Source: Botryllus schlosseri
Lineage: Eukaryota
NCBI GenBank assembly: GCA_051294905.1
Contig: CM119372.1
Coordinates: 36,272,001-36,336,000, forward strand
DNA length: 64,000 bases
Reading direction: 5' to 3'
Of the stretch, positions 1,755-63,088 are shown piece after piece (position 1 is the stretch's first letter; the number at the start of each line of letters is the position of its first letter). A model generated the notes under the pieces. The model saw only the letters and a list, made by a program, of their open reading frames with translations, was not told the DNA's origin and did not search any database. The position numbers and the translations under genes are program-made.

Positions 1755-3462
1755 CCAAACTTCCTTCTACGAGTGACGCACATGCTATCACGTTGAAAGA
1801 GCGGTGTTATATTGGCACCGGAAAGCGTTCGTAATCTGCATTATGGCCAAGCATATTCATTATCCACTTCCTGATGATTCACATGCCCAATCGATAACAT
1901 CATATGTAGATTGATTACTTTCTGTGACGCATCTTGATTACCTTAATACCACGCAATTTAATGGGTGCTTAGCCGTCCTCGTGGCTACTCATCACTACAG
2001 ATTCGTTCGTTCGGTGATGTAGAATATTCACCAGTTCAAAACCACGCAAGATTGCGATAGAATAGAAAGAGAGGAAGATACCGAAACGACTTGGAGTACA
2101 GTCTTTTAAATCAGACATCTAACTTGATTCAAATTTGGAAATTGCTAGTGCGACTTGTGCGAAAAATATAAGATAAAATGTGCGGTGTATATGCAACTCC
2201 ATATTAAAGGATGCTTGGATGCTTTGTTAAATCGTTTCGTAATTCTAAGAATATACACAAGGCTAAACGCATGTTAATAAAAATCGTCAAAATTTACATC
2301 AGTGATTGGGAATCACAGTCAAACTTATGACGAGCTTATTTGCCGACTTATACGAGGCATCAGTGCACTTGGTATATAAATACTAGTCCTCCTTCGGTCA
2401 TGAGATTTTAACTCGTTAAAATACGTATTTGACTGATAGTACAACCAAGTCCTCTTTTGTTGGTGACAAATGAATTCATATTGCTATAATTTGTTATGGA
2501 TCATCAAAATAATGTGAATCCATCTGATCTCTTTTGCTTTCTCGACATCATAAAATAAATAGCTATTCTCGACGCATCTTCGTTTCACAAGTATAAAATG
2601 TAGGCTTGCAAATATATGGTCCATGTACTTGGATAGGTGCGGCATATAATAGATGAAGTGGATATTCGCCCGTGAATTCTGTTCAGCTGTATGCAGTCTC
2701 ATCTCGTATATTAGGGTGATGGTTCTTTGGCCGGGTCCTTGAGAGTACAAGAGGTACCCTGAGCAAGTCTAACGGGTTCCGCTTCACATTTTCAGACATT
2801 CTCCACTCCTGATCATGAGTCGTGGTACCACGCCTGTCTTGGCCATCATTGTCTGCAGGCGATTAGGGTTGAAAAGTTGTCATGTCGAAATGTGACTGTT
2901 CTGATGGTACGTCGTGTAAAGTGTCGTGCCCAGTGGATGTTGGTGTTCAGAATCGAGACCCGGTTATTCTCAAATGCTGATTTTATCCACAATATTTATT
3001 AGCTCATTTGAAATTAAGCAATTGGTATCACGCAGTTACGTTTCGATCCAACAATACGAAGACACTTTTCAAGGGGAAGCCTCGTATTTCAAGCTGGTAT
3101 CTGAAAGGGAATAGCTGATGTCACACTGATGTGCAATTAATATTCCTTATGCTGTTTTCACTTCGTATGAAAATCATATTTTCATGTTTGGGTTCTTAAA
3201 ACTTTATTGGTACACAGTTAATTGCGTGGTCCAGTGATCTATTGTAATTTTTCTCTATCACAATTATGTGCATATAATCGAGTAAATTTATTGCGACTGC
3301 GTGTGGGACATGTAATCTCATAATACTAGAATTGTGTGCAGTCCTCATTGTCGACACTTGATGTTGCAAACGTATTCTCTTAGCTTTCAGGAATGTCTAC
3401 TCAATACTCTAATCAGTTTATTGCCTAAGGATTCTTACATCTGCCCCACAACTTCATGAGTC

Positions 3463-4518
3463 ATGGCGTGTATGGACGGGGACCTCGTCCCGTTGGCATA
3501 CGACGGCGTTGAGATGGACCCGGATCACGTTATAACAGCGGAATCTATTTTATGCGGGATTGCCGTCTACCTCTGCGTTTTCCAATGGCTTTATGTTTAT
3601 CGACATCACGTGAGGCGCGAATCAAAGAATTCAAAAACGATGGTTTCGAGCATTCTATTGGCGGTGTGCTGCGTAGTGTTGCTTCTGGGAGAGGTCATGG
3701 ATGTCGTGGCGATGGTGTACGCGAATGTGTATGTTACAGCAAGGGAAAATTACTGCGTGGCTTTGAAGACCATCAACGATGCCGAAAATTATTCGGACAA
3801 TCGCCATAACCTGTCAGAGGACTTTCCAAACGTGGTGCGCTACTGCGATATCTCTTCGTTCAACTTCGAAACCTTCCCAAGTGATCCAGCATGTCCCGAA
3901 AAAGAACGAAACGACGCCATAGACTATGATCTAGCTGGCCGCTACTGCGGCTTTATAGCGTACGCGATTTCTCTCGCGGTTATATACGGCGTTATATGGC
4001 AAAGGCAGAGGTCGATTTATCGAGAAACGGCCTTGTCTCACCTGTCAAATACCGTAACGAGGTTTATTAGTAAATATTTTATAGTTTACGTGACAGCGCT
4101 TACGATTGGGAATGTAACAGTATGCATGTATTTTTTCAATGATTACTCGTTGAATGTCACTACCAACCTGTTGCAATCAGGGTCGTTTACCGCACTGCTG
4201 TTGCTGTTTCCCTGGGCGGTACAACTGCCCATGCTGATTCTGTTTATATATCCGCTCATCAGAGTCAAAGATTTCAATCGTAACTCGAATATCGTGACCC
4301 ATCCGAAATACGTTCGACTCATAAAACGGATTATTGTTCTTACGTCGGCTTGTCTGGCCTCTGATACTGTGATGGCGGTAGCTACCGGGTATACTTTCGT
4401 GCTAATAAATTCCCGATTCACAATCCCCCACATTAACATCACGGTCAATCTAATTTGCGTGAACTTAATCGCGACGGATTGGAAATCGCGGCTTGTCCCG
4501 TGGATGGCTGCATGCTGA
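3463..4518 (+). CDS. Orphan 7TM (GPCR-like) membrane protein, paralog 1 (351 aa)
   Basis: Single-exon ORF with seven hydrophobic segments; WQRQRSIY after segment 3, LFIYPL in segment 5, DWKSRLVPW after segment 7; paralogous to three other ORFs in the window. Confidence 0.85.
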   Translation: MACMDGDLVPLAYDGVEMDPDHVITAESILCGIAVYLCVFQWLYVYRHHVRRESKNSKTMVSSILLAVCCVVLLLGEVMDVVAMVYANVYVTARENYCVALKTINDAENYSDNRHNLSEDFPNVVRYCDISSFNFETFPSDPACPEKERNDAIDYDLAGRYCGFIAYAISLAVIYGVIWQRQRSIYRETALSHLSNTVTRFISKYFIVYVTALTIGNVTVCMYFFNDYSLNVTTNLLQSGSFTALLLLFPWAVQLPMLILFIYPLIRVKDFNRNSNIVTHPKYVRLIKRIIVLTSACLASDTVMAVATGYTFVLINSRFTIPHINITVNLICVNLIATDWKSRLVPWMAAC

Positions 4519-4950: not shown

Positions 4951-6154
4951 CTTCATAGTCCCTACATATGTTTTTTTAACCCTACAGACGATATACACGC
5001 GATATAGTCGACGTATATACAATATGGATCGGTTAGAGCCCTCGAAATCGTCGTCGGATCATTGGTATGAAATGAATGTTCAGATGTTGATGACCAACGG
5101 CTCGTTGGCGACGACTATAAAAATGCATCATAGCGATGTGAATCATAGTCAAACTGATGAGCGTGTTTGCCAACTTATACCCGGTAACAGTGCACTTGGT
5201 ATATATATATTAGCCCTGTATCAATTGTATAAATTTACCTCTTTAAAATAAGCATTTATTGAATAGTGCCATCGAATCTACTTATGGTGGTGACAAATGG
5301 ATTCATCTTGCTGTAATGTCTTAGTTTCAAAATTTAAATATGTAGATTTGCAAGTACATTTTCGAAGCACTTGGATAGGCGGGACTTGTAATGGATGAAG
5401 TAGAAATTCGCGCGTGAATTCTGTACACCCGGGTGTAGTCTCATCTCGTATATTAGGGCGATGGTTCTTAGAGGGGGTCCATGGAAAACCGTGGTTACCT
5501 GAGCAAGTCTCAAGGGTTCCGCTGGACGTCAATAGATATACTCGACTCGTACACATGAGTCGTGGTAACACGCCAGTCTTGAATGCGCGCAAGTAGACGT
5601 GATTAGTTGTCGAATCGTGATTTGTGTGGTGGTACGTCGTGTACAGTGACGTAGGCTACTCGGGGGATGTTGGGGTTTGCAATCTAAACCACGTTATTCT
5701 CAAATGCTGATTCTATCTCCAATAGTTATAAGCTCATTTGAAATTAAGCAACTGGTGTTACGCTGTTACATCTCGACCGAACAATATAAGTCACTTTCCA
5801 AAATGAAACCTCGAGTTTCGAGCTGGTATCTGAATGGGAATAGCGGTAGTCACTCTGATGTGCAATTTATATTCATAAATCATATTTTTGTGTTTAGGCC
5901 CATTTAAAACTGTACTGATGCACAGTTCATTTTTGCTGCAATAATCTTTAGTAATTCTGTTCTATAGCAATTATGTGTATATAATTAAGTAAATCCCTTG
6001 TTACTGTGTGTAGGACATTTGAGCTCATAATACTAGGATTGTGCAGTCTTCATTGTCGACACTAGATGTTGCGAAGGAATTCTTTTTACGTTCAAGAAAA
6101 TCACGGTACTCAATGCGGAAGGATTCTCACACAAGCGCCACAATTCTGTAAGTC

Positions 6155-7228
6155 ATGACGTGTATGGATGGGGACCCGGTGCCGTTGGCATACGATGGCG
6201 TTGAGATGAACCCGGATCACGTTATAGCAGCAGAATCCATTTTGTGCGGGATTGCCGTCTACCTCTGCGTTGTCCAATGGCTTTATATTTATCGACATCG
6301 CGTAAGCCGCGAATCCAAGAATTCAAAAGCGATGGTTTCGAGCATTCTATTGGCGGTGTGCTGCGTAGTGTTGCTTCTTTCGGAGGTCATGGATATCGTG
6401 TCGATGGTATATGCGAATGTGTATGTTACAGCGCGGGAAAATTACTGCCTTGCTTTGAGGACTATCAACGATGCCAAGAATCATTCGAACAGTCCGCAAA
6501 ATCTGTCTGTGGATTTTGCAGACGTCATACGCCACTGTGATTTAGCTACATTGAACTTCGAAACGTTCCCAAGTGAACCAGCGTGTCCAGAAAAAGAACG
6601 AAACAGCGCCAAAGTCTCTGATATAGCTGATCGCTACCTCGGCTTTATCGCATACGCGATTTCTCTAGCGGTTATATACGGCGTTATATGGCAAAGGCAG
6701 CGGTCGATTTATCGGGAAACGGCTCTGGCCCACCTGTCCAATAACGTGACTAGGTTCATCAGTAAATATTTTATAGTTTACGTGACAGCCTTAACGATTG
6801 GGGATGTAACGGTCTGCATGTATTTTTTCAATGATTACTCGTTACATGTCGCTACCAACCTGTTACAATCAGGGTCGTTTACTGCATTGCTGTTGCTGTT
6901 TCCCTGGGCGGTCCAACTGCCCCTGCTGATTCTGTTTATATATCCGCTCATCAGAGTCAAAGATTTCAATCGTAACTCGAATATCGTGACTCACCCGAAG
7001 TACGTCCGACTTATAAAACGCATTATTGTTCTGACGACGGCGTGTCTTGCGTCCGACACTGTCGTAGCGGTAGCAACAGGGTATATTTTCGTGATCATAA
7101 ATTCCAGATTCACACTCCCCCACATTAACATCACGGTCAATCTGATTTGCGTGAGCTTGATCGCGAGTGATTGGAAATCAAATATTATATTTTCGGTTTC
7201 AGAGCGACAGTATCTTACGCTAAGATAA
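6155..7228 (+). CDS. Orphan 7TM (GPCR-like) protein, paralog 2 (357 aa), with replaced C-terminus
   Basis: Very similar to paralog 1 up to DWKS (7179), then unrelated NIIFSVSERQYLTLR* instead of the family RLVPW tail. Confidence 0.8.
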   Translation: MTCMDGDPVPLAYDGVEMNPDHVIAAESILCGIAVYLCVVQWLYIYRHRVSRESKNSKAMVSSILLAVCCVVLLLSEVMDIVSMVYANVYVTARENYCLALRTINDAKNHSNSPQNLSVDFADVIRHCDLATLNFETFPSEPACPEKERNSAKVSDIADRYLGFIAYAISLAVIYGVIWQRQRSIYRETALAHLSNNVTRFISKYFIVYVTALTIGDVTVCMYFFNDYSLHVATNLLQSGSFTALLLLFPWAVQLPLLILFIYPLIRVKDFNRNSNIVTHPKYVRLIKRIIVLTTACLASDTVVAVATGYIFVIINSRFTLPHINITVNLICVSLIASDWKSNIIFSVSERQYLTLR

Positions 7229-11570: not shown

Positions 11571-12025
11571 TTGCATTTATACTTCAACATGTATGTTATC
11601 GACAGACAAGAACCGATATTAATTAGAACTCAAAGTATATGATACTGGGAATTGAAAGTGAATCATAAATACTACTGCTAAAACCGGAACATGTATTTCA
11701 TGTCTTTAGTCCAGAAAGTTTCAAAGGTGGTATGCTAAAACAGCTCTAAAACTAAAAAAAAGTAAGAGTCCACTTTTCCAGATTAGGACACGTCATGGAC
11801 ATGCTAGATTACGATATGATAAGTAACTGCTGGATTGCGAAACGTCAGTTTCAAAGATTGTGAAGAGCCATATGTACTGTGATGAAATATTTCATATGGG
11901 CGAAGGGCGACAATGTGGTGTGAACTGCGCTGTGAGGAATACAAGATATTGAACGGTAGACATGCGGACGTAGGAATTTGGAATATGAAATATGATTGTT
12001 AAATCGCAAGTCGAATTCCTCTTGT

Positions 12026-12420
12026 CAGGGTTACCATATTTTGGAAATCTGAAAGGGAGAACACTTTTCAAAATTTTCAGACTTACCACACTGAAGTAAA
12101 ATCCTGAAATAATGGTAAATTTCTCGCGGGTTTCTGGTTGGTTGACTATAAAAAAAAAAGGTCACTTTTCCGGCTCGGTTCCAGAAGTTACCACTTTTGT
12201 CGAATTCTCCGTTGGTTGAATAAAATAAACAGGTCAACTTTCCGGCTAAGCTTCCGGAATAGCCGCCTGAGCGTTACTTCAGTGCTGATTCACTGTATCT
12301 CGGTCGAATTTTACCCTATATTTAACCAAAATTCTCAAAAAAGAGGACATTTGGGCGTCGTCCGAGAACTCTTTCAAAAAAAGGACAAATCCTCTTAAAA
12401 GAGGACGTATGGCAACCCTA
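12026..12420. mobile_element. MITE, same family as 1313-1754
   Basis: CAGGGTTACCATAT...GTATGGCAACCCTA termini; shares AAAAAAGAGGACA...AAATCCTCTTAAAAGAGGACGTATGG. Confidence 0.65.
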
Positions 12421-12856
12421 TCTTAAGTCCAGGGACCTATTGGATAGGAAGTGACACAGCAGTGCGATCAAACATATTTGAATTATATATTTCTGTAACT
12501 AATATATTTCCATGTAAACGGCATGTAACGATTCGGCATTGGAGTTTTCGCTTCTGTGAATGATTAGTTTTTGGTCCATTTTCCCATAAAACTCCGGACT
12601 CATTCTCGAATTAGAGAGAGACCTCAACGCCGTAGCCTGGTGATTATTATATGGCCTACGAGCAATGTTCCCTCTAAGCTGCGCACGTGCGCAAATGCGC
12701 AGTGCTGAGACGGTCTCTGCGCACAGAAAATCTCCGTTGCGCACAAAAAATCCGAAGTGATGACCTTTTTTTTTAGTCATTACGCACTGTTGTCCAAGGG
12801 TCTGCGCAGTAGGTTGGTGATCGTGCGCAGGCTTGGCAAAAATTCGAGGGAACATT

Positions 12857-14262
12857 AGTAGTTGTATAGATCGCTCGTGATGTGACAAGGGCTCTTATGG
12901 GTGCGGCGGCGAATCGCCTGGAAACTCGTGGTGGCGAATCGCATTTTTAGACCCCCCTCTCGGCCGCGATTCGCCATGTGTTCTTATGGGTGCGGTCGTT
13001 ATTCGCACTTTCAGGTATAGGCCGTGGCGGTGATTCGCCGTGAAAACTCGTGGTCGTGACTCGCCTTTTTTGCTATAGGCGGAGGCGGTGATTCGCCATG
13101 TATTCTTACGGGATCTGTGGTGATTCGCCATGTGTTCTTATGGGTGCGGTCGTGATTCGCACTTTCAGGCATCTCTCGACCGGTGTTGAATATGTATCAA
13201 GTAAATAGTCATGTGAATGAATCTTTGTTAATGTGTATATCATGAAAACTCGTGGTCGTGACTCGCCTTTTTTACTATAGGTGGTGACGGTGATTCGCCT
13301 GCCGTGTATTCTTACGGGATCTGTGGTGACTCGCCATGTGTTCTTATGGTTGCGGTCGCAAGCGGCCATTGCGTCTTATGGCGGGGGTGGCGAGCGGTTA
13401 TTGCGTCTTATGGGTGCGGTCGCATGCGGCTATTGTGTCTTATGGGTGCGGCCGTGAATTGCCCTTTCGGTATAGGCATCTCTCGCACGTCGTACTTTCG
13501 CATGTCGTGCTTTCGCGTATAGGTTGTGTTGGTGACTCGCCATGTGTTCTTATGGGTGCGTCGGCATATCGTACTTTCGGGTATAGGAATCTCTCACACG
13601 GTGTTGAATATGTATCAAGTAAATAGTCACGAGTATCACTAAACAGGAAATTCACTAAACCGCAGTGCATTGTGCGATTTTGAAAAACAGATGTTTGCGC
13701 TTGCGTTTTGATATGTCTGACCTACTAAATACGTCCGTTTTGCGAACACGGCTTGTTGTGAGGATTACGCAGCGCGTGCGGCCTATATTTCGAATGACCT
13801 GTGTGCTGAATTGTTTCCCGTCCAACCGTGTGCTACTATCGATTATTACGCTAGTCCAGTCAGTGCGAAATAGTTTGCTAAATCTAGGAATCAGTCGCAT
13901 GGTGTTACTTTAGTAATTAGTTTACCATAGAACCGACGTAGACGGTGATTCGAATACCGACAAATTTTCACTTATTTCTGACCCAACCCTATTCCTCTGT
14001 GAAGTTGACGCTTATTCAAAAAGGTGTGAAATAATTGTAAAATCCTAATCCGAAACCGATTATTTCGACTTTGGCGCAGTGCGCATTGAAATAGGATTGA
14101 TGAACATGACTAGCAACTTCCGCACAGTCCCGTTTCGATATTATACAAACATTGATTTGAAACAAGTAATATAACATTACAACTCTATTCACGATCCTGC
14201 TTTCCATTTGTCAAAGAGCTATTTTAACATCTTACCATACTCAAAAGAATTATTCACAACAT
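12857..14262 (+). repeat. Left TIR (1406 bp)
   Basis: Reverse complement of 19719-21188; the ORF track shows mirror-image near-identical ORFs in both arms. Confidence 0.95.
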
Positions 14263-14329
14263 GATGATGAGACTTGAGAACATGAATTTGTTTCCATGAT
14301 GTTTGTACACCGACACATTGTATGTACAC

Positions 14330-14944
14330 TAGGGCTGTTCAAAAATAACTTTTTTTTCCGGATTCCAGCCATTCAGTGATTAAATTGTCAGGTTACCTTA
14401 AAAAACGCTGCACACCAAATTTGGTTCAATTCTAACAAGTATAGGGCTCCGCGGATGCAATTAAAATTTTAAATTTATATAGGAAAATTGAAAAAAAAAA
14501 TTTTCAAATTTTTCGGTCAACCCCATGAAATTGTTGAGCTGTCTTCAGAGACGATGCAAAAAAAATTTGACTCAATTCGGACTAGTAGAAGTGGAGTTAT
14601 TGGAGTTTTTCGTTGATAATTCTCCAATTATCCTTGATTGGTGGATAATCCGAGAATTATCAACGAAAAACTCAAATAACTCCGTTTCTACAGGTTGGAA
14701 TTGACTCAAATTTCATTTGCATGGTCTTTGAAGACATCTCAACATTTTCATGGGGTTGAGAGAAAAATTTGAATTTTTTTTTTAAATTTTACGTAGTAAA
14801 TTAAAAATTTTAATTGGCTCTGCGGACGCTTAGACATGTTCGAATTGAACCAAATTTGGTGTGCAGCCTTTGTTGTGGCAACCTGACAATTTAATCAGTG
14901 AATGGCTGGAATCAGGAAAAAAAAGTTATTTTTGAACAGCCCTA
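14330..14944. mobile_element. Palindromic hAT-type MITE (615 bp) inside the Polinton
   Basis: TAGGGCTGTTCAAAAATAAC...GTTATTTTTGAACAGCCCTA; perfect 8-bp TSD ATGTACAC (14322-14329, 14945-14952); the whole element is an imperfect hairpin. Confidence 0.9.
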
Positions 14945-15585
14945 ATGTACACCTCGTTTACGCGAATACTTGGTATGTATGAACAATCGTGACGTACTTG
15001 ATGTGATGGTGTATGCATTGGTATTTTTCATGGAGACAAAACACGGTCTGTAACATGTTTACTTGAATATTGGTCGTTGGTTCATGAGTGAATATCCGGA
15101 TCCGGTCCACATACTTTCTCATATTAGTGACCCGGTTTCAGCTGACTGGAGCGACATGTATTGACCAGTAAAGACACAATATAGTAAACAGACCTGAGGA
15201 AACCTGCAAGTAACCCAGAGTTGTTAGCGCGATGGGGAACATAAATTCATCCGTTTTCCGAACATCATTATCCGTGTACCAACCAGTTACCAAAGTCGAG
15301 GAAGTGTTTTATTCAGACATTTTGACTCTGGAAAATCCAAAGCGCGAACCCCGGACATCGCGGACATATCGGAAACCCCTTTATTCGCCAATTCCGAAAA
15401 CATACATGTCGATGTACAACAGCACATTGTTATTGCATGCGAGTAACCAATGAATTTGATGGGATGCATCAGAGCAAGTGAATATTTGATTAGACAAATG
15501 TATCGGAGTCATTGTTGGTGTATATTTTGTCACTGTCCGTTGTAACAATATACAAAAATATCAAATTTTACGGTGTGGTGGTCAG

Positions 15586-16195
15586 TTTTCAAAACGAAAA
15601 TGGTATTGTTACCCAGGGAAAAGATAGATTTCCAAGTGAAAACGGTATTGGTACTCAGGTGAATGATAGTTTTCCAAACGAAAAATGTTTGTTACTCAGG
15701 TAGAAAATATATTTCCAAAAGAAAATGGATAGTTACTTTAGGTAAAAGTATTTTTCCAAGTGAAAATGGTTTGTTGTTGTAGGAAAAAAAAAATTGCAAA
15801 CGAAAAGGGTTTTGTTACTCTAGGAAAGGATAGAACCCAAAGTGAAAATGTATTGCTACTCTGGGTAAACGATAGATCTCCAAAGGAAAGTAATGGTTTT
15901 ACTCAGGTAAACGACGACCCGCCGAGTGAAAATGGTTTGTTGCTTAGGGAAAAAATATATTTCCAAGTGAAAATGGTTTGTTACCCGGGGGAAAAATATA
16001 TTTGCAAGTGAAAAAGGTTTGTTACCCAGGGAAAAATCGATTTCCAAAGGTAAGGGGGCTTGTTACTCTTGGAAACGATGGACCCCCAAGTGAAAATGTT
16101 TTGTTACTCTGATTAAACGATAAATCTCCTAAGAATAATGGTATTTTTACTCAGGTAACGGCCGACCTCCAGGTGAAAATGGAAATTTTACTAGG
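15586..16195. repeat. Degenerate minisatellite, ~41-42 bp unit, ~14-15 copies
   Basis: Recurring TTCCAAGTGAAAATGGTTTGTTACTCAGG(G/T)AAA motif; GAAAA anchors at 15596, 15638, 15680, 15721 and onward. Confidence 0.85.
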
Positions 16196-19100
16196 GTAGG
16201 TATCGTATGTTTAGTGTCGTTGGTGCTGTTAAACGTTGTCGCCGGTAGCCGTTGGGATACTATTACGAGTGTGAAAAGGATTTACACGTCCTGTGCAGAG
16301 TATCGCGATAGTGAACATATTTTTCACGTGATGAAACAAGATCGCTGTTTAAATTTTATTGCATATCGATTACCGAGTTGCTGTACAATAGAGATGACTC
16401 TACATTAGACCGTGCTGTGTACTTCGATTAAAACCACAAGACCACATGTAAATGTATTCACACAACTCGATGATGTTGATATAGTGTTACTAAAATGAAT
16501 TATTACCTATTTACGCAACATAAAAATAACAATTCATGTCGTAGTAAGTAGGTTTCGTGAACTCGTGCTTGATGAAAACGAATGGTGACAAGTATGTGTT
16601 TGTGTTTGAGTGAAAAATAATTATTTAGAGTAGTGACATTTTGTGACCAACGAATGCAAATCGATCATGATATTACAATAGACGCTTTCGTCAACATAAC
16701 GACTTGGCGCAGGAGAAACACTTTCACGTTTTTTCAATAACTGGATTCTCGAGACTTGTTACTTGTACCATGTACCGTTGGTGACTATAACGGCCATTTT
16801 GTATGATAGTACGTTTAGCTGTTTTGTTGCTAGGGCAATCACTTGATGACTCAGCACTTTTTGTTAGCAAAGTAGATTGATTTGTGTGTAAGATGTAAGC
16901 ACCGTAACTAGAAAACATATGTACTCTGTTGTTGGAGTAGCTGATTTATTGCTATGACATGGACATATCCTGAAGCCTTGGTTGGTTTGTTGTCTTACGA
17001 AAGAAGAGGCGACCTCGGTGTCGTAAATTGTGTTAACTAAACCCGGATGGATACCACAATTGTGTTGGACTTACACATGATATTCGCATACTGTACACAT
17101 ACAAACTTTTGTGTAAACAACGCTGATGTTTCTGTTAATACTAGTTCTGTGTTGAACTATTTGATTATTAAGATAAATGAACAACCATTCAGACAATAAA
17201 GGTCTTGAGGTATCGAAACAGTTTGAAAGCGTCACCAATCATTGTACAGGTTCGTAGCATGGGAATATCGAGTATTTTCGTGTAACATGAATATATTTCA
17301 TATGCCTTCGGTAAGAAATGAGTTGCGTGGGGTAATCATACACAACCTACAAAAGTTAAACTTGTAGCGTTTGATTGCCTACTTTTTATCAATGTCTTTG
17401 TGATGTTAAAAGACGGCTGAGTTTACATTTACATTAAGCGGAGCAACTCGAGAAATATGAGTATCAATATGAGTGGTATATTATTTTTCGCGATATGCAA
17501 CCAATCTTCTAAGCATAACTTGTCAAAAATTTATCGTGTCGTAGAAACACCTGTTGTTACGAATTCGAAAGAAATGTACTTCGATTATCACGACGATGGA
17601 AATTAAGATCAATGCGGTATTTCGGAGATGGATGTGTATCGTTTGGTATGCTCCCCTATCCCTAAATGTCGGTTAGTTAAACGATACATTTACAAGCTTA
17701 GCGAAATCTTGATTTACAAATAACAGCTTGATGATGTAAAGCTCAACCACGCAAATGTGTTCATTGCAAAGTATTTGACACAAACAAAATGTCGAATGGA
17801 GACCATCACATTGGTTTCATTTCGAGTGAGTGAAAATTGTTTTCTGTTGGCCAGGTTGGACACATTTGACAAACATCGTACACATTGTATCTTCGTGCTG
17901 GTAACGACTTTCAGCGGCTTGGTTTCATGTCGGGAATTATTATTTGAGGGTTCAAGAATGATTTCAATCAATACTAGAAATGAACAACAATGCAAAACAC
18001 GTTTAGCAAATAACAGTGTAGCAAGTACTTTTTTGATATTAAGAGTGTTGGGCACTAGACACTTCTAGTTGAATTGGATGCATCTAACAAACATATCACA
18101 ATTTACTTTTGCAATAATCAAAGTCTTAGAGTGTATAACCTCGCGATATTTTACATTTAGCACGCACAATGGGGAGTTACTGAAATGATTAGGAATTGAT
18201 CGCTAGCTTCGAACGGTACTCGATAGTCAAAGTGATATTTTCACACTCTGTAAAGTGCATATGTTTCAATTCTCTGTCACAAATTCCGACAATAAATCGT
18301 TGGATTCAATAGTAACGATATTGTGATATACTGATTCTACACTTAGTCGTTTCAATTACCCGTTGGGAATCGGGATAATAAAGCATTTTGTATCGGATGT
18401 TCAATGTATGAATACTGGAATTATTACATCTTTAGTGCTGTTTATCGCAAACGATAGATTTTAATAATTGTACTGATTGTTGAATGTAATAATACCGATA
18501 TTGTCGTTTCACCTTTAGTCTTGGTTACTGGAAATATTTTTTGATATCCGCGATACGCAGAGTGATTTTTACCAAGGTGGAGTAATTTTCATATCAAGAA
18601 CATTTCAGACACACATAGTTTTACAGCTTAATATGTTAATAACATTGGTACTGAAAAGTTTGTTGCTGTCATAACATTTACCACAACGCCGGGTCTAATT
18701 AACGCAAATAATTTAATAATAAAGTAATGATCAACTATTACAAAATCTCATATGTCAAATCAACGTGTCAATCCTTATGTTCACAGCATGATAACTTTGA
18801 ATATAACACCATCGTTCGATTGTAAGAAATGAATTCTCAACTACGTTGGTCGGACTTCCAAATCTCGTATACTCAAACATATTATGTTAATCTCAAGTCG
18901 CCGACACTGAGATGTAATTACTTTTGTCTTACAAAATATACCGAGTAGTAATTCGTTTGTCTTGCAGAATATACCGCGTAGTAATTCCTCTATCTTACAG
19001 AATAGTAACGACTTTTCAAGTTGAATAAAAAAATATGTGTAGGGATATGAATACAACCTAGCTTGTTATGGATTTTAGGTTTTAGTGATTGTATGGATTC

Positions 19101-19718
19101 GTGTATGTTTGGCTGTTTTTCATACTGATACTGTTTGAGTTGGTCGGGTAAGTTACAAACGGATTTACTTGACAATGTTTTCGTGGTTGACTCTTTGAAT
19201 ATGGTAAGATGGTGAGATGTCGAGACGTAATATTATTTCCGTACACTTAATTACAACCAAACATAACCCGCATTCAAATAAGCCGTAAGCTACAAGTGGA
19301 TTTGAAACTTGATGCTGTTTTGTGGTTAACTCAAGTCAGTAGTCATGTTTGTGTTGATTTCGGGAATGATCATGACGAGTTTGTCGGGTAAATTAGGTAA
19401 TGTGGTAGTAACTATGACCTTACCGAGTTGCTGACATTCAAATATCTTTCACGCTGTAATATACGGATTTAATTGTGATAAATTATTTCTCAGTTATTGT
19501 TCAGACATTCAAATCTCGTATACTCAAAATATAATATGTTCAAGTCAAATCGTATATGCACCGATTAGTAAATACTTTGTCTTCAGAATAGTAACGACCT
19601 TTACAATCGAATAAAAAAAGACCGATCATACGAGTATACAACCAGGATGAATTAATTCAAATTTATGAGTTGTAGTGATGTAATCAAGTAAGTGAAACTA
19701 GATTTTTAACAATTGTTA

Positions 19719-21188
19719 ATGTTGTGAATAATTCTTTTGAGTATGGTAAGATGTTGAAATAGCTCTTTGACAAATGGAAAGCAGGATCGTGAATAGAGTT
19801 GTAATGTTATATTACTTGTTTCAAATCAATGTATGTATAATATCGAAACGGGACTGTGGGGAAGTTGCTAGTCATGTTTATCTATCCTATTTCAATGCGC
19901 ACTACGCCAAAGTCGAAATAATCGGTTTCGGATTAGGATTTTACAATTATTTCACACCTTTTTGAATAAGCGTCAACTTCACAGAGGAATAGGGTTGGGT
20001 CAGAAATAAGTGAAAATTTGTCGGTATTCGAATCACCGTCTACGTCGGTTCTATGGTAAACTAATTACTAAAGTAACACCATGCGACTGATTCCTAGATT
20101 TAGCAAACTATTTCGCACTGACTGGACTAGCGTAATAATCGATAATAGCACACGGTTGGACGGGAAACAATTCAGCGCACAGGTCATTCGAAATATAGGC
20201 CGCACGCGCTGCGTAATCCTCACAACAAGCCGTGTTCGCAAAACGGACGTATTTAGTAGGCCAGACATATCAAAACGCAATCGCAAACATCTGTTTTTCA
20301 AAATCGCACAATGCACTGCGGTTTAGTGAATTTCCTGTTTAGTGATACTCGTGACTATTTACTTGATACATACTCAACACCGTGTGAAAGATTCCTATAC
20401 CCGAAAGTACGATATGCCGACGCATCCATAAGAACACATGGCGAGTCACCAACACAACCTATACGCGAAAGCACGACATGCGAAAGTACGACGTGCGAGA
20501 GATGCCTATACCGAAAGGGCGATTCACGGCCGCACCCATAAGACACAATAGCCGCATGCGACCGCACCCATAAGACGCAATAACCGCTCGCCACCCCCGC
20601 CATAAGACGCAATGGCCGCATGCGACCGCACCCATAAGAATACATGGCGAGTCACCACAGATCCCGTAAGAATACACGGCAGGCGAATCACCGTCACCAC
20701 CTATAGTAAAAAAGGCGAGTCACGACCACGAGTTTTCATGATATACACATTAACAACGATTCATTCACATGACTATTTACTTGATACATATTCAACACCG
20801 GTCGAGAGATGCCTGAAAGTGCGAATCACGACCGCACCCATAAGAACACATGGCGAATCACCACAGATCCCGTAAGAATACATGGCGAATCACGACCGCA
20901 CCCATAAGAACACATGGCGAATCACCACAGATCCCGTAAGAATACATGGCGAATCACCGCCACCGCCTATAGCAAAAAAGGCGAGTCACGACCACGAGTT
21001 TTCACGGCGAATCACCGCCACGGCCTATACCTGAAAGTGCGAATCACGACCGCACCCATAAGAACACATGGCGAATCGCGGCCGAGAGGGGGGTCTAAAA
21101 AGGCGATTCGCCACCACGAGTTTCCAGGCGATTCGCCGCCGCACCCATAAGAGCCCCTGCCACATCACGAGCGATTTATACTACTACT
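19719..21188 (-). repeat. Right TIR (1470 bp; one extra 64-bp internal repeat block)
   Basis: Inverted copy of 12857-14262 with an additional CCCATAAGAACACATGGCGAATCACCACAGATCCCGTAAGAATACATGGCGAATCAC-type block. Confidence 0.95.
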
Positions 21189-21718
21189 AACATTGCCTTC
21201 GAGCATGCTTGACATTTGCTGTCTTTTAGGGAATATTTAAAGAACGTATTTCCAGCAAAAAATCTCAACATTGGTAATATAGGAATTTTTCAATCTAATC
21301 AGAATTACTTCGCGGGCCGGATGAAATCGTCTGGCGGGCCGTATGTTTGACATCCCTGCGGTTTAGAACGTTTGGACGATTTCACTAATAATTCACTATA
21401 TAACACACAACGAAGTAATTATTTCAACAGGCTCGCCCGAATATGCTTAATTATCATTAATTACATGCCCTATATTTCCCAATACGACACCTCACTCAGC
21501 TCTACCGGAAAATCAGATAATTCCGAGAGTCACGAATAATAGTAAATTTTCGCGAGCGGTGCGATTAGGTGACACGGGTCTGCCGGCACTGGGTAGAATG
21601 AATGCGCTCACACGTACTGGTGGAAACATCCATCCAACTGTGGGATCTTGGGTGGGATTCCCCAGAAATGTGTTTTATCACCCTATATGAGTGGCCCAAG
21701 AACAATGGGAGTGTGGGG

Positions 21719-21901
21719 CAATTTTTGGCGAGACTGTGCACACTTACCAACTCACTGCGCAGACATTTGGACAACAGCGCGTAACGACTTAAAAAAAAGG
21801 TCATCACTTCGGAATTTCTGTGCGCAAGTTGGATTTTCTGTGCGCTCAGACCGTGTCAGCACTGCGTATTTGCGCACGTGGGCAGCTTAGATGGAACATT
21901 G
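21719..21901 (-). mobile_element. Inverted copy of the 12663 MITE family
   Basis: Ends GCGCACGTGGGCAGCTTAGATGGAACATTG, the reverse complement of CAATGTTCCCTCTAAGCTGCGCACGTGCGC with few mismatches. Confidence 0.75.
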
Positions 21902-21916
21902 GTGTGGGGGCTGACG

Positions 21917-24400
21917 AGGGAGAGAGAGAGTCTTTATTTTCATCGAACCAAAATACATAACAAACGGCAGTGATGGTGGTACAGAAGATATGCGTGCACA
22001 GTATTCGGTATTAGATAGGAATGATCGATAAGACCGTGAAGGTCATCTAGTCTGATCACACCAGCATCAAACAGGTACACTTGACTCTGAACAGTCTGGC
22101 TGTAAAAAATGTTTACTTAAGAAAGAAAAATAGAAAAAAAATTAGCAAATGATCAATGAAGCAATGTCTGAGCGAGGTATGGCAACAGTGTTAGTGTAAC
22201 GACAAGAGGTGATCAAGTAGGGCTTTTTTGAATCTATTATAAGGCAATTCACGGATATGTGGTGGTAATGCATTCCAGATGATAGGTCCTGAGTAGTCGA
22301 TAGATCTCTTAGTTAGGTTACTATTTGGTGGGGGTAAGTAGATGTTTCCTTTAGACGAGGATCTCGTGTAATGGGAATGGCCATTTTTAGCAGGTATGAA
22401 AAAGTCATCAAACACAGGAGGCAGACTATTGGAAAAATATTTGTGAACAACTTTTGATACTTCGAAGCGATATAGTTCATCAACTCGCAAAATTCGATGC
22501 TTACGGTAGTAAGGCGATAAATTGGTACGTAAAGGTACAGATGAGATCAGCCGTATCGCACGGTTTTGCAGGGTTCGAATTCTGCACAAAAATGTTGTGC
22601 ATGCATTTCCCCATACTACGATTCCATATTGCAGATGAGAGTGGAAAAGAGAGAAGTAGATGGTTCGTAGTACTGATCTGGAAACCAAAGATTGGAGACG
22701 GGTCATTATTCCCGCACACCGAGCTAGTTTTGATATTGTGCATTCAATATGCTGCTTCCAAGACAATTTGGAATCAATGGTGACGCCGAGATATTTTGCT
22801 GAGTCACATATTGAGATTTGTTTATGATTGATGTTCACAGTGAAATTATGACTGGCATTATTTAAAACGAGCATCTCGGTCTTATCTGCATTCAAACTTA
22901 GTTTGTTTGCTTGGAGCCATCTCGACACTTTTGGGAGTTCCCTATTCACAGATGCATGCAAACCATCGACAGTGTTGGAGGTTATGAAGAGGTGAGTATC
23001 ATCAGCAAATAGCGTTGTGCGGAATAAAGATGCATTAACAATGTCGTTAATATAAATGAGGAAAAAAGTCGGTCCAAGGACTGAGCCTTGTGGCACTCCA
23101 CAAGTTATATCTCTGGTAGTCGTTCTTAATGTCCCCAGTTTAACAAATTGTTTGCGGTTTGCCAGGTAGCTTTCAAGTAGAGTTGCTGCAATACCCCTGA
23201 TTTCAGAGTGTTCTAGCTTGTATCTTAAGATTCTGTGGTTAACTGTGTCGAAAGCTTTGCGGAGATCGATAAAAATGCTGCAGCCACTTTCTTTTTGCTT
23301 GATGGTTTTGTAATAGTCCGTTACAATTGATAGTATTGCATGGTTGGTGTTGTGGTTGGATCTGAATCCATGCTGAGTCGGAGACAGTACTGCATTCAAT
23401 TCAAAAAAGTTCTTGAGTCGGCAGTCAATCAGTTTCTCAAAAACCGTGGCAAGATTTGGCAAAACAGATATTGGTCGGTAGTTAAAAATTAGCTTTTTAC
23501 AGCCTTTCTTAAACACTGGCATTACTCTGGCAGTTTTCAGTGCATCTGGGAAAATGCCTAGACGTATCGACTCATTAAAGAAAATGCATATAACATCACC
23601 AATAATATTAAAGACTAGCTTCAGAAAGTGAGTTGGGATGAGATCGGGTCCTACTGCTTTGTTACTTTTCATTTCAGATAATACGATCGCAACTTCTCCT
23701 TTACTTGTCGGCTCAAGAAAAATGGATTTCTGAGGGCCAGGACTCAAGTACGAGAGAAAGTCATCCGAGGAGTTTGGTATTGAAGCTGCAAGATCCGGAC
23801 TAATGTTGCAAAAATACTGATTGAACTTTTTTGCTACTGCAAGCTGGTCTTTGATGATGCTGCCATTCTCGAGTAGCACGATGTCATCAGCACTCTTGGG
23901 AGCATTACCTTTAGTTAGGTTGATAATTTCTCCAATGGTTTTCCATGTGTTCTTGGGATCTTTGGAGCACTCTTCAAATCTTTTTTGGAAGTATGCTTTT
24001 TTGGCATTTTCTTTCATATGCGTCACTTGGTTTGCATATTTTTTGTACACTTTTTTGCCTTCGATGGTGCCTTACAGATAGTAGTGCTTATGCATCCAAT
24101 CCCTTGTTTTGATCGCAACTAGTATGTCATGACCAATCCAGGGTTTCGATTTCAAGCTCCTTGCATTGCGGTTGACTTTCCTAATTGGGAAAGATGTGTC
24201 GAGGGCTGCCCGCAGTTCCTCAATAAATTTTTCAAAATGGCGGTTGTAGTTGTCAATTGTGAGTGGAGGAATTTTGTAGTTGTTGAAGGTATTGCTGACA
24301 ATTTCAATATACTCCTCAATACCGCGAGGGTTTAAGGGCGAAGTGTTTTATTTTTTACCTTGATTCTGTGGCCAGGTATCGCTGTTGTCAGATGTTTTCA
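21917..24400 (-). mobile_element. 5'-truncated CR1/L2-like LINE
   Basis: Contains the RT ORF; upstream KPWI motif (~24140) lies beyond a stop; on the minus strand the 3' end has AATAAA followed by a (CT)n tail at ~21917-21940. Confidence 0.8.
22191..24050 (-). CDS. Non-LTR retrotransposon ORF2 reverse transcriptase (partial, no endonuclease domain)
   Basis: Motifs KAVGPD, NYRPISVL, QHGFR, FIDLRKAFDTV, GVPQGSVLGP, LFADD, KYLGV. Confidence 0.9.
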   Translation of the reverse strand: MYKKYANQVTHMKENAKKAYFQKRFEECSKDPKNTWKTIGEIINLTKGNAPKSADDIVLLENGSIIKDQLAVAKKFNQYFCNISPDLAASIPNSSDDFLSYLSPGPQKSIFLEPTSKGEVAIVLSEMKSNKAVGPDLIPTHFLKLVFNIIGDVICIFFNESIRLGIFPDALKTARVMPVFKKGCKKLIFNYRPISVLPNLATVFEKLIDCRLKNFFELNAVLSPTQHGFRSNHNTNHAILSIVTDYYKTIKQKESGCSIFIDLRKAFDTVNHRILRYKLEHSEIRGIAATLLESYLANRKQFVKLGTLRTTTRDITCGVPQGSVLGPTFFLIYINDIVNASLFRTTLFADDTHLFITSNTVDGLHASVNRELPKVSRWLQANKLSLNADKTEMLVLNNASHNFTVNINHKQISICDSAKYLGVTIDSKLSWKQHIECTISKLARCAGIMTRLQSLVSRSVLRTIYFSLFHSHLQYGIVVWGNACTTFLCRIRTLQNRAIRLISSVPLRTNLSPYYRKHRILRVDELYRFEVSKVVHKYFSNSLPPVFDDFFIPAKNGHSHYTRSSSKGNIYLPPPNSNLTKRSIDYSGPIIWNALPPHIRELPYNRFKKALLDHLLSLH

Positions 24401-30205: not shown

Positions 30206-30449
30206 CGGTATGTTTGGACATTGTATACACTCGTATGGAATTACTTTAACAATGTGCGCGTATAATATTTCAAAAGTCACATTTCGACTGCAAAGAAACG
30301 CCGAGGGGAATCTTGCCTTTTGTATTTAAATACCGCACTTTATTAATATATCATACCGGCATATCGTGTCCAGTGGCGTATAAACATAGGTGTTTGAGAA
30401 TATTTCTTAACGATATACATAGTCGAATCCTAAGAGAACTCTACGAATC

Positions 30450-31580
30450 ATGGCTTGCATGGAAGGGCTGCCAGTTAAATTGACTTACACAGGCAAGGAA
30501 ATGGATCCAAATGCGGTAATAGCTGGGGAATCTGTTTTGTGCGGGATTACTGTCTACCTTGGCGTAGTTCAATGGACGTACGTTTTCCGGAAACACGCTT
30601 GCCGCGATTGCAAGAGTTCAACATCGATGGTCGCGAACATTATGCTTGCTTCCAGTTGTGTACTAATCCTTTTTTCCCAGATAGTGGAAATCGTTGCGAT
30701 GGTATACACGAATGAATACGTATCGGCGAGGGAAAGATACTGTACCGCGCTGCGAAGTGTCATTCACGCGAAAAATTATTCAAACGACGATGTTAATTCG
30801 TGGAAAAATTTGTCAGGCTTGATACGTTACTGCAACGTATCCGCACAGTACTCCGACACGTCCATCATTTGGTGTCCTGAATCGGAAAGACTGGTCGCTT
30901 ATAGACTTGAATTTGCGGGAAGGTATTGCGGAATGGGCGCCTACGCCATTGCAGTGACGATCGCATATGGCGTGATATGGCAAAGACAGAGATCAATCTA
31001 TGGGGAGCCGGCATTGTCCAACCTGTCCAATAGCATAACAAGGATGATTAGTAAATATTTCATTATTTACTTGATATCAGTTACCTCTGTCGTGGTAATT
31101 GTGTTCATGTACTATTTGTCAGAATATTCAATTTCAAGTGCATTGGACGAAGCGAATGAATTTCCGAAATTCACAATACTAATGTTATTATTTCCGTGGT
31201 CGATTCAACTACCCTTGTTGATTTTATTTGTACTTCCACTGATTAAAGTCAAGAAATTTAATCGCACCTCAAACATTGTGACTGATCCTAAATATGTCCG
31301 ATTAATAATCCGGTTAATCGTTGTCACATCGGCCTGCGTAGTCTCGGATACGGCATTGGCGGTATCGACTAGATATTTCATCGTCATAAATTCTTTTAGA
31401 TTCATTTTTACCCATGTGAACTTCGTCATTAACCTGCTTTGTGTCACTTTAATCGCCACCGACTGGAAATCGAGGCTTGTCCCGTGGGTCGGTTTGTGCT
31501 GTCAAACAAGCCCGCCTGCGTCCAACCCAAATTCAGGTGTTACAAGCTCAGAAAATATGGATAGTGGCACGCGAATGTGA
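30450..31580 (+). CDS. Orphan 7TM (GPCR-like) protein, paralog 3 (376 aa)
   Basis: Intact single-exon ORF with the same motifs (WQRQRSIY, FPWSIQLP, DWKSRLVPW) and a Ser/Thr-rich cytoplasmic tail. Confidence 0.85.
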   Translation: MACMEGLPVKLTYTGKEMDPNAVIAGESVLCGITVYLGVVQWTYVFRKHACRDCKSSTSMVANIMLASSCVLILFSQIVEIVAMVYTNEYVSARERYCTALRSVIHAKNYSNDDVNSWKNLSGLIRYCNVSAQYSDTSIIWCPESERLVAYRLEFAGRYCGMGAYAIAVTIAYGVIWQRQRSIYGEPALSNLSNSITRMISKYFIIYLISVTSVVVIVFMYYLSEYSISSALDEANEFPKFTILMLLFPWSIQLPLLILFVLPLIKVKKFNRTSNIVTDPKYVRLIIRLIVVTSACVVSDTALAVSTRYFIVINSFRFIFTHVNFVINLLCVTLIATDWKSRLVPWVGLCCQTSPPASNPNSGVTSSENMDSGTRM

Positions 31581-33721: not shown

Positions 33722-35126
33722 CAGGGGTGGCCAACCTTTTTGTTATTCACAGCCGCATTTCGACCAGTCATGTAGCCTACGACCGCATTCCAGGGCATAG
33801 TCGTAATGAACCAGCTGGAAGCCAAATACCCATTTTAAACTGTGCATTAGGGCTGTTCAAAAATAACCTTTTTTCCTGAATCTTGCTGGTTACTTGATTA
33901 AATCGTTAGGTTGCCTTAAAAAACGACGCACACCAAATTTGAATTCATTCCAATCAATATTCGCGGATTTCGTAGAGTTTGAAAATTTTGAATTTGCCTA
34001 AAAATGCTAAAAAAATTTTTCAAATTTTCCTTCCAACCTTATGAAATTGTTGCGCTGTCTTCAAAAACGATGGAAAACAAATTTGACTCAATTCCAAGCT
34101 GCAGAAACGGAGTTATTCAAGTTTTTTGATGATAATTCTGGGATGATCCACCAATCAAGGATAATCCCAGAATTATCAAAGAAAAACTGAAATAACTCCA
34201 CTTCTACGGCTTCGAATTGAGTCAAATTGGTTTTGCATCGTTTTTGAAGACAGCGCAACAATTTCATGGGGTTGGCAGAAAAATTTGAAAAAATTTTTTT
34301 TTTGCATTTTTAGGCAAATTCAAAATTTTCAAACTCTACGAAATCCGCGAATATTGGTTGGAATGAATTCAAATTTGGTGTGCGTCGTTTTTTAAGGCAA
34401 CCTAACGATTTAATCAAGTAACCAGCAAGATTCAGGAAAAATGGTTATTTTTGAACAGCCCTACTGTGCATGTCCATTTTCGGCTTACTAGATGCTCTGG
34501 AATCGTGAGTGATATGAATAGATTCCTGAAATGAGCATGGTCGCGCGAAGCGCGAAACTGTTTCAGATTCACGAATAGATTTCGTCATTAATATTAGTAG
34601 TTTCACATATTCATATCAAACGTTTATCCTTTCTCAGCCCATGTGATCAGATTACCCCGTAGAGTTGATGGAGTGTGTGTTTTCGAAATTTTAGGTCAAG
34701 TTATAAATGATGATAGATCTTCGGGTGGGCAAATTGTAATAAGTCACTTTGTTGCATGCTGTTACGTCTTGACCTCTCATCAGGATTGTCGGTATAGTGC
34801 AAAGATATTGGAATCGCCCTATCGTACTAGAAACAAATTTCTTTCGTGAGGAAGACACGATTCCAAGTTTCTTATATACGAGACGCATCATTTTTCTCTG
34901 TTGTTCATAACTGTATACTGCGGTGCTCAGATTGCAAAGAGCGCGACTATGTTAAAATCGAAAAATGAAGTCGCATTGAATCGTGCACCGCGAGAAGACA
35001 ATTTCAAGAATAATTAAAATCTCTTAAAAAATCGGAAGTCAATTCGTAAATTCGATTTTCATGTTGACGGCCGCCAACACATACTAATTGAATTACGTGT
35101 CCACGGCCGCAGGTTGGCCACCCCTG
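33722..35126. mobile_element. Non-autonomous hAT-type element hosting a nested MITE
   Basis: CAGGGGTGGCCAACC...GGTTGGCCACCCCTG perfect TIR; flanks ATATAGAG and ATATAGGA. Confidence 0.8.
33848..34463. mobile_element. Palindromic hAT-type MITE (616 bp), same family as 14330-14944
   Basis: TAGGGCTGTTCAAAAATAAC...TTATTTTTGAACAGCCCTA; perfect TSD CTGTGCAT (33840-33847, 34464-34471). Confidence 0.9.
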
Positions 35127-35317
35127 ATATAGGATTTCAGTAAATATCAAGTGTTGAGACGGGCATGGTACTTTTCCCATAACCTGCTTTTGATAAGTGG
35201 TGGCAACGTTGCCAGCAAATATCAGGTTCTATGTATCACACAGACGTTCCGTTTAATTTCACGTTATCCCAATCATTTGTATGCATTCGATTTCAGGAAA
35301 TTCGGCATTTGCAAATC

Positions 35318-36433
35318 ATGGCCTGCATGGAAGGACAAGCAGTGCCGTTGACCTTCAACGGCGTTGAAATGGATCCGAATAGCGTTATAGCGGGAGAGGC
35401 TACTTTATGCGCAATCACTGTTTACCTAGGAGTGGTTCAGGTGATCTATATCTTCCGTGAACACGCCTGCAGCGGGCGAACGAATTCACAGAAAATGATT
35501 CAAAGTATTCCGTTAGCGATCAGCTGTATACTGGTGCTAGCTTCGGAGATAGTGGAAATCGTTGCGATGTCTTACGCCAATGATTACATCAACGCAAGGG
35601 AATCCTACTGCTCCGCAATAAGGAATATCAGCTATGTAGACACTTCGTGGAGCAACCAATCATTCATTTTCAGAAATTACTCAAACTTCATTCGTTACTG
35701 CAATATAACCTCCTTCAACTTTGAAACATTCCCATCTGATCCGCCGTGCCCGCAACAGAAGAAGCAAAACGCCATTAACCTGGATTACGCGGGGAGGTAT
35801 TTCAGCTTTGTAGCGTACGGGACTTCAATCGTAATCATTTTCGTCTTGATATGGCAAAGACAGAGAGTGATTTATCGAGAATCGGCGTTATCCCACCTGT
35901 CAAATAAATTCACAAGATTCATCAGCAAGTATTTTGTTGCCTACATTCTTGTTGTTGCGATTCTCAATGTCGCTTTGTTCATGTATTTTTTTAGCGAATA
36001 CTCTCTGGAATTTACGGTGTTAGACACCGAGAGATTCACGATACTGCTGCTGCTACTGCCGTGGTCAATACAGCTCCCGATGCTGTTGCTTTTCATATAT
36101 CCGCTGGTTAAGGTCCGAAATTTCAATCGCACCTCAGACATTGCCACTCACCCGAAATATATCCAACTGATGAAAAGGATAACTGTATTAACAGCGGCGT
36201 GCCTGTTCTCCGATACCGCTATGGCGATATCCACAAGCTATTTCGTCGTGGTGATAAATTTTAGGTTTATATTCGCCCACGTGAATTTTATCATCAATCT
36301 GATTTGCGTCAATTTAATCGCAACCGATTGGGACTCGCGGCTCGCTCCATGTCTGCGAATTTGCCGACGCGTGCCAAAAACGGAATCGGATGTTAGCATC
36401 TCGGAACGTGCGACAACGGAGTCCCGAGTATGA
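35318..36433 (+). CDS. Orphan 7TM (GPCR-like) protein, paralog 4 (371 aa)
   Basis: Start set at MACMEG (35318) by homology with the paralogs, not at the ORF-track ATG 35231; same seven segments and motifs (WQRQRVIY, LFIYPL, DWDSRLAP). Confidence 0.85.
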   Translation: MACMEGQAVPLTFNGVEMDPNSVIAGEATLCAITVYLGVVQVIYIFREHACSGRTNSQKMIQSIPLAISCILVLASEIVEIVAMSYANDYINARESYCSAIRNISYVDTSWSNQSFIFRNYSNFIRYCNITSFNFETFPSDPPCPQQKKQNAINLDYAGRYFSFVAYGTSIVIIFVLIWQRQRVIYRESALSHLSNKFTRFISKYFVAYILVVAILNVALFMYFFSEYSLEFTVLDTERFTILLLLLPWSIQLPMLLLFIYPLVKVRNFNRTSDIATHPKYIQLMKRITVLTAACLFSDTAMAISTSYFVVVINFRFIFAHVNFIINLICVNLIATDWDSRLAPCLRICRRVPKTESDVSISERATTESRV

Positions 36434-44870: not shown

Positions 44871-45316
44871 CGCATTTTTGATCAGAGATCTCTGTAACCT
44901 GTCACAAAAAACTATTGTAAAATCTGGCAAGTGGTTTTGGGGATTCGGGTAAAAATTATAAACTGGTAAATATCATGTTGTTCCTGATGTGTTTTGTGTT
45001 TCACCTGAACATATATAATTCCCGAGAATTCTATGGGGCATTTCCACTTCATTCTGAACACTAGAGGCGATAAAGATAACTCGACCCAAAACTGTTTTGT
45101 TGCTATATGCTTTACTATGGGACTGGAGTTAACATGGACATTATTTCGTCACTTGATGCACAACGAGGATGGTGAAAGTATTCATATGAATACAAATCAT
45201 CCATATGGCTATCAAATAGCTTTTAGTGACGAAAATGATGCTGTTTCTTGGCGTCTTATCCTCGTGATGGACATAGACATATCCTGGCAGCTTACGTTGC
45301 TGTTGCTGTTAATTTT

Positions 45317-62779: not shown

Positions 62780-63088
62780 GACGTTTTCAACAGCTATAGA
62801 CTTTATCTATGAAGTGTATTGCTAAAGAATGTCAAAGAATTAGTGTATCGTAATCGTAATGAACTAAACTGCGATACCCTTTCTCACAGCTGCGCTTGCA
62901 GAAGCCTGTATATTTATTATCAAGTTTTGATACAGACGCATTCATGCATGAAATACAATCGTGTCCTAAACTCGCAACAGAATTGGTAGGCTGTTATAAA
63001 TCGACATCGTACGTTTTATAAATATTTTATCGGTTCCTAACACCACACGATCGTCATGCAATGAATCCTTAATAATCCGAGGAAAATT

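Follow-up and report, generated by a model that had tools for sequence, protein, structure and literature searches.

A gene-less mobile element with Polinton/Maverick ends in Botryllus schlosseri and its possible origin from a palindromic satellite

What kind of element combines the ends of a Polinton/Maverick with long inverted arms and no genes, and how did it come by its shape and its numbers? This question is raised by a locus in a stretch of 64,000 nucleotides of Botryllus schlosseri DNA (assembly GCA_051294905.1, contig CM119372.1, positions 36,272,001 to 36,336,000), which we call the window and whose numbering is used throughout. The locus holds a real, gene-less mobile element with the Polinton/Maverick end signature. 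The spread of its family without Polinton genes is strongly indicated. On balance, we lean to the reading that a giant palindromic Polinton-dependent satellite suffered a one-sided deletion and that the copy described here retains one whole arm (~6.3 kb) and a 1.4-kb stub of the other.

Borders, arms and interior of the element

The element and its immediate surroundings comprise the following features:
12663..12856 plus base 21195 (195 bp in all), + strand: host hAT-type MITE (miniature transposable element with inverted repeats), split by the element, with its own 8-bp duplication
12851..12856, + strand: left target-site duplication AACATT, from letter comparison
12857..14262, + strand: left inverted arm, 1406 bp, beginning AGTAGT, from arm comparison
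14263..19718: interior of 5456 bp without genes, GC content 33-38%, high-copy throughout
19719..21188, - strand: right inverted arm as matched by the left, 1470 bp, ending ACTACT
21189..21194, + strand: right target-site duplication AACATT, from letter comparison

The element proper runs from 12857 to 21188 (8332 bp), with an exact copy of AACATT at either side. When duplication lengths from 2 to 12 bp were tried, a full match was obtained at 6 bp only, and the chance of 6-mer identity is about 3 in 10,000. The ends read AGTAGTTG on the left and AGTAGTAG, on the reverse strand, on the right, and the terminal motif (AGT)2//(ACT)2, the Polinton/Maverick end motif, is present. A first-pass annotation, made from the sequence alone, had reported AGTAGT termini with a perfect 6-bp AACATT duplication, and both were confirmed; its span of 12851..21194 does contain an element but takes in the two AACATT copies. 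The arms differ by 25 substitutions spread along their length (14 transitions and 11 transversions; Kimura two-parameter distance 0.018; 98.2% alike). They were described as 1.4-kb terminal inverted repeats (TIRs) with scattered substitutions only, which is right for their lengths and substitutions but overlooks a single 64-bp indel corresponding to two extra 32-bp units on the right. Such 32-bp units make up the outer ~770 bp of the left arm, which are GC-rich (51%).

Mutator-group fold-back elements, for example FB of Drosophila, have long modular arms, are often gene-less and make a duplication of ~9 bp. The modular long arms of the present element are like those of FB, and its 6-bp duplication and Maverick end motifs are not. 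An origin outside the Polintons, as a Mutator/FB-like fold-back element or one of an unknown superfamily, with Polinton-like ends by chance and the 32-bp modules serving as transposase-binding sites, would account for the repeats in the arms; we regard it as improbable, as the duplication measures exactly 6 bp rather than 8-11 and the ends are the commonest Maverick motif (PMC8097293). The Mavericks of vertebrates have 6-bp duplications, (AGT)2//(ACT)2 as their commonest ends, TIRs of 46-1447 bp and lengths of 12.7-24.6 kb (PMC8097293). The element thus resembles autonomous Polintons/Mavericks in its ends, duplication and long inverted repeats, and differs from them in its length of 8.3 kb and in having none of the eight core ORFs (PMC8097293).

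The insertion site could be fixed independently, because it is defined by the ends of the host MITE and by the MITE's own 8-bp duplication, whose copies agree at 7 of 8 letters. The element was inserted one base before the right end of this MITE, six bases were duplicated, and the empty site is readable from the split host. An 8-bp duplication together with short terminal repeats is the rule for hAT-type elements. For comparison of the locus with public data, 4 of 24 listed runs were set against positions 11900-19718: the contigs of runs X1, X4 and X8, and the raw RNA run X23, of which about 6 in 100 was read. Many different flanks join at 12663 in X1 contigs. An inverted match between 12663-12844 and 21720-21901 was considered as a single host element around the insertion and rejected, the two being separate MITE copies. 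The one at 21719-21901 belongs, as a second and inverted copy, to the same 195-bp family as the host MITE; one of its ends is altered, and it is apparently flanked by GTGTGGGG left and right. More hAT-like MITE ends lie beside the element at 12027-12420 and ~21300-21358, and the region is a nest of small transposons.

The interior contains five features, the last of which extends into the right arm:
14321..14953: nested hAT-type MITE, 633 bp, ends TAGGG...CCCTA, 8-bp duplication ATGTACAC
15232..15453, + strand: 73-codon candidate ORF
15587..16158: 41-bp tandem array, ~14 copies, 68% matches
17421..18461, + strand: stop-poor frame, 6 stops in 347 codons
18819..19760, + strand: old direct duplication, 18819-19218 versus 19472-19760, with its last block within the right arm, over the border 19718/19719

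The ~5.5-kb interior was said to lack any sizeable ORF, and this holds: its longest stop-free frames have 116 and 114 codons, within the range of shuffled sequences (median 105, 95th percentile 145). Of 12 frames, taken from the left arm and from the part of the interior to the right of the MITE, none matched Pfam, and none of 6 matched PHROGs, with stops read as X in both cases; when 13 ORFs of the window were run against Pfam, all five interior ones were without a family. These Pfam and PHROGs searches, run without a decayed Polinton as positive control, revealed no Polinton core gene or remnant (polymerase B, integrase, ATPase, protease or capsid), and Rfam gave no match over 12000-22000. 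In X23 there was no defined transcript and no piling of starts or ends over the arm and interior bins, which does not imply silence; depth per direction was 0-4.4 over arm and interior, in both directions, and 10-55 over the MITE bins.

The candidate ORF at 15232-15453 starts with what we take to be a likeness to an N-myristoylation motif. Relatives were looked for and none was found, the best Atlas score of 0.86 being at most a lead. Positions 15242-15264 have a weak opposite-strand match to 20233-20255, of a strength reached by 2-2.5% of shuffles. The stop-poor frame is marginal against chance, since 29 of 1000 shuffles had as few stops, and it had no relative among 503 candidates or 1.84 billion representatives. 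It is possibly a decayed gene of unknown kind, or chance, and we do not count it as a gene. The copy number of the 41-bp array differs among family members, as judged from joints in contigs. The nested MITE, of hAT type by the same rule, has outer arms that are 13% apart. A relative at 33848-34463 (616 bp, 8-bp duplication CTGTGCAT) has outer arms only 1.7% apart, diverges by 16-18% from the nested copy and represents a younger relative.

Amplification of the gene-less family

The interior bins were all deeply covered in each of the three contig runs, with depths of 118,000-447,000 in X1, 76,000-692,000 in X4 and 214-2611 in X8. The five arm bins had depths of 67,000-187,000, 69,000-221,000 and 655-1819, respectively, and single small contig pieces lay at the low end, at about 6-13 (X1), 46-85 (X4) and 3 (X8). 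Summed contig depth is not a copy number, as it swings several-fold between bins and more than 10-fold between single sites. Division of the depth by that of the small pieces gave 82 to 29,521 copies, depending on run and assumption, and was rejected as a figure. In X1, the share of the window's own letter in the depth was 1 in 150 or less (median of 22 sites; range 1 in 25 to 1 in 1657), and the letter had zero X4 depth at 15 of the 22, where it should be considered that contigs lose rare variants. These sites are biased to the extreme: they were picked from 40 listed of 889, where nearly all depth differs from the window. Hundreds of copies is a fair estimate of family size as an order of magnitude.

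Such numbers strongly indicate that a gene-less family has spread without Polinton genes of its own. As it is the gene-less body that was amplified, polymerase and integrase would have been supplied in trans. The proposal of a non-autonomous Polinton derivative gains from the Polinton-type ends, the 6-bp duplication, the lack of core genes and the many copies of the gene-less interior. We would add that the element works like a helper-dependent derivative and is not a member of the autonomous family, whose genes and size it does not have. The companion proposal, that the element moved after losing its genes, stands as far as a gene-less family was amplified; the intact ends on which it leaned are no proof of movement in the present shape, because shortening may postdate insertion.

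The same data bear on decay in place, by which a single autonomous Polinton would have lost its genes and shrunk where it stands. Degradation is the common fate of such loci, affecting 96% of those of vertebrate Mavericks (PMC8097293), and one stop-poor frame is present here. No core-gene remnant was found, however, and the same gene-less interior occurs in very many copies. If the stop-poor frame was once a gene, its six stops in 347 codons, where 0.45-0.9 would be expected at the divergence of the arms (P 8e-6 to 4e-4), place its decay before the arms' last likeness. Decay of one Polinton in place is close to refuted and is the least probable of the explanations we weighed.

Scans for arm-sequence patterns gave no match in two scans of viral contigs and two of metagenome contigs, and no loose ends at 12857 were present among the 24 listed of 6241. 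Transfer between species was considered, since runs labelled as organisms B, C and D hold 0.28-0.33 of the words, and was rejected: in X8, the one of these runs that was compared, the flanking MITEs and flank bins are covered too (30 of 30 bins), so that close kinship or a mixed sample explains the sharing. Other family copies diverge at 14047, 17225 and 17460, as seen from loose ends in X8 and, for 17225, also in X4. Position 14047 could be where the helper or another subfamily departs from the shared arm, and 17460 coincides with the first ATG of the stop-poor frame.

Shape of the parent element

The locus had been described as a pair of 1.4-kb TIRs around a 5.5-kb interior. Depth ratios and a duplication that seems to cross the right border make one long arm plus the stub of a palindrome the more likely layout. 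If all copies had the present shape, the ratio of interior to arm depth should be 0.5, because both arms pile up on the single mapped arm. We obtained ratios of 1.98 (X1), 1.45 (X4) and 0.74 (X8) from 15 bins, after three bins touching the array had been dropped and three MITE bins excluded, and ratios of 1.88, 1.33 and 0.84 when non-repetitive parts only were used. At 25-28 bases inside the left border, depth was 0.46, 0.24 and 0.30 of that just inside the right border, in a comparison of single sites, which swing more than 10-fold. The path from the arm to 19718 is multi-copy, the joint 14262/19715 being present in 7 X1 contigs and 3 X4 contigs (depth 4048).

The old direct duplication, with its core at 18819-19033 versus 19472-19619, seems to run on as a collinear chain with offsets of 653, 587 and 542, ending inside the right arm. 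The last block of the chain (19736-19760 versus 19194-19218) agrees at 22 of 25 letters, a value reached by 1 of 200 shuffles, and is the best same-strand match of the inner right arm to the interior. The length of 14263-21188 without the nested MITE is 6285 bp. Taken together, the depth ratios, border depths, joint, duplication chain and 6285-bp length speak for a complete right arm and a left arm of which 1.4 kb remains.

A number of points weigh against this reading. A gapped alignment of the right-arm duplication was not significant (score 88; shuffles mean 84, maximum 108), and the 25-letter block was first spotted by eye. Summed depth may be inflated where a varied interior gives shorter contigs. 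The X8 ratio lies between the two expectations (0.74 overall and 0.34 for the three left bins, with a step near 16600). An inverted match inside the interior was not found, which is compatible with a central deletion and no proof of it. A joint that skips the nested MITE (14320/14962) was absent among the best 15 of 962 joints; the depth at three MITE sites suggests that most family copies are without this version of the MITE. Finally, neither a palindromic parent nor a helper or second insertion site was directly seen.

The strongest alternative is a lineage moving in its present shape, that is, an ~8-kb gene-less element with 1.4-kb TIRs, of palindromic origin or not, for which a Polinton supplies the machinery in trans. 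In its favour, the duplication and the two ends are intact, 14263-14320 is itself multi-copy, and 1.4 kb falls inside the range of 46-1447 bp for vertebrate Maverick TIRs (PMC8097293). The arms of the nested MITE are 13% apart and those of the element 1.8%, which suggests that the cargo predates the last time the arms were evened out. At each of the five MITE sites listed, the difference looks like decay in this copy, and at 14101 both arms share a letter that is missing from 99% or more of the depth of the family. A palindromic parent that carried the old cargo and the shared letters would, however, lead to the same expectation. The interior depth was half of the arm depth in none of the three runs, the left/right border depths of 0.46, 0.24 and 0.30 (single sites and noisy) fall below the expected 1, and the duplication chain seems to cross the right border. 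We therefore consider movement in the present shape possible but rather unlikely. A shade more doubtful is the version that treats the lopsided 8-kb form as a separate lineage derived from giant hairpin satellites, and not as their debris, and so as a naturally 'gutless' Polinton genome. Here 1.4 kb per end would suffice, junk such as the old MITE and the satellite array would ride as cargo, and a helper polintovirus would copy, integrate and perhaps package the whole.

The lopsided shape could also be an artefact, if the assembly collapsed or wrongly joined reads that run through a long palindrome. Long palindromes are hard to sequence (PMC8701086), and no contig piece over 14262/14263 was present among the 8 listed per run, of 143,635. 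Points against an artefact are the 25 substitutions and the indel between the arms, the clean outer joins, and some X1 depth of the window's own letters at 22 of 22 checked sites. Mis-assembly is highly improbable on these grounds and, if true, would still leave a palindromic satellite.

The explanation we favour, an intact arm facing a shortened one, suggests the following course. A full Polinton of the same genome would supply the protein-primed polymerase, terminal protein and integrase; both a protein-primed polymerase and a retroviral-like integrase are known to be Polinton-encoded (PMC6431247). The satellite would contribute its ends alone, (AGT)2 plus arm, as origin and integration site. 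Its parent form would have had two mirror arms of ~6.2-6.3 kb flanking a short spacer, which may have arisen by copy-back during protein-primed strand displacement and been kept alike at each round. The parent would then have been integrated into the end of the 195-bp MITE, where the 6-bp duplication is seen in the sequence. A one-sided deletion of ~5-6 kb, most likely after insertion, would have taken out the inner part of the left arm, together with the spacer or most of it, and fused 14262 to 14263. One-sided deletion is a described fate of palindromes and was seen in transgene arrays (PMC8701086). The arms would since have drifted, as evident from the 25 substitutions and one 64-bp slip. 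On this account 12857-14262 would be the stub of a longer arm and 14263-19718 the inner part of the intact right arm, with what is perhaps a spacer remnant at its left end. As it stands, the copy is probably a dead end.

Known systems, neighbouring features and implications

Copy-back (snap-back) defective genomes have long mirror arms, and 'gutless' adenovirus genomes keep their ends and need a helper. Compared with both, the element described here sits in the germ line, integrated with a target duplication, and was amplified as a transposon, and packaging is only conjectural. Among elements of the Polinton group, those of Pieris include forms that are polB-less and TIR-flanked, carry transposon cargo and are apparently still mobile, as here (bioRxiv 10.1101/2025.02.07.637071). 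They keep other polinton genes, whereas our element has none that is recognisable and is probably one palindrome arm; some polintons also have ~2-kb TIRs that bear genes (bioRxiv 10.1101/2025.02.07.637071). Long Polinton TIRs (744 bp) of C. elegans, a trait shared with our element, persist in partial elements and join in rearrangements; strains of this species have 3-9 Polintons each and, unlike here, no amplified gene-less family is noted in the available portion of that report (bioRxiv 10.1101/2024.01.15.575659). Tlr1 of Tetrahymena has long TIRs and is without the primed polymerase, both as here, and the literature phrase 'non-autonomous polinton', sometimes used for such elements, refers to it; it has its own genes, in contrast to the present element, and is treated as a family of polinton-like viruses (PMC5499653). 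An amplified gene-less or palindromic Polinton family was not described in the literature searched, which comprised titles and abstract starts, with subscription papers and Repbase outside its scope. Kapitonov and Jurka are said to have mentioned non-autonomous Polintons in 2006.

Elsewhere in the window, four related single-ORF genes of 350-416 codons encode a multi-pass membrane protein (3460-4518, 6152-7228, 30423-31580 and 35183-36433, all + strand). Three of them were scanned and had no Pfam family, and together they form a tandem receptor-like family; one matches Atlas clusters at 0.94-0.96, mostly of Chordata and with the automatic name 'Serpentine receptor class gamma'. A long uninterrupted ORF of Sec8/EXOC4 (724 codons) lies at 49228-51402 (+ strand), and an uninterrupted ORF of 545 codons at 61169-62806 (- strand) encodes a PRKCSH-domain protein that we take to be OS-9-like. 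The remaining features are repetitive. A LINE-like retroelement reverse-transcriptase ORF of 626 codons is found at 22191-24071 (- strand; RVT_1, E 2e-33). Tandem arrays occupy 43423-44795, with 205-bp units (6.7 copies, 409-bp higher order), and 40816-41247, with 200-bp units. Inverted repeats of 194 bp at 45033-45226 and 48880-49073, 89% alike and 3.65 kb apart, perhaps mark a further DNA transposon.

To our knowledge, Polinton replication has no direct demonstration. Gene-less dependants show which DNA must be present in cis and in what way it is copied by the helper, although a single shortened copy tells less than an intact member would. A gene-less family with hundreds of multi-kb copies contrasts with the situation in the anole, where Polintons number fewer than 10 copies and non-autonomous ones were reported as apparently absent (PMC3014272). 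In practice, caution is advised: what looks like a 'long TIR plus unique interior' can be a hairpin that was broken, and the internal shape cannot be dated from ends that are intact. If a lopsided mobile lineage should prove true, it would show how much cis sequence, at most, Polinton replication and integration can require, and it would mean that neither full palindromy nor genome-size matching is required.

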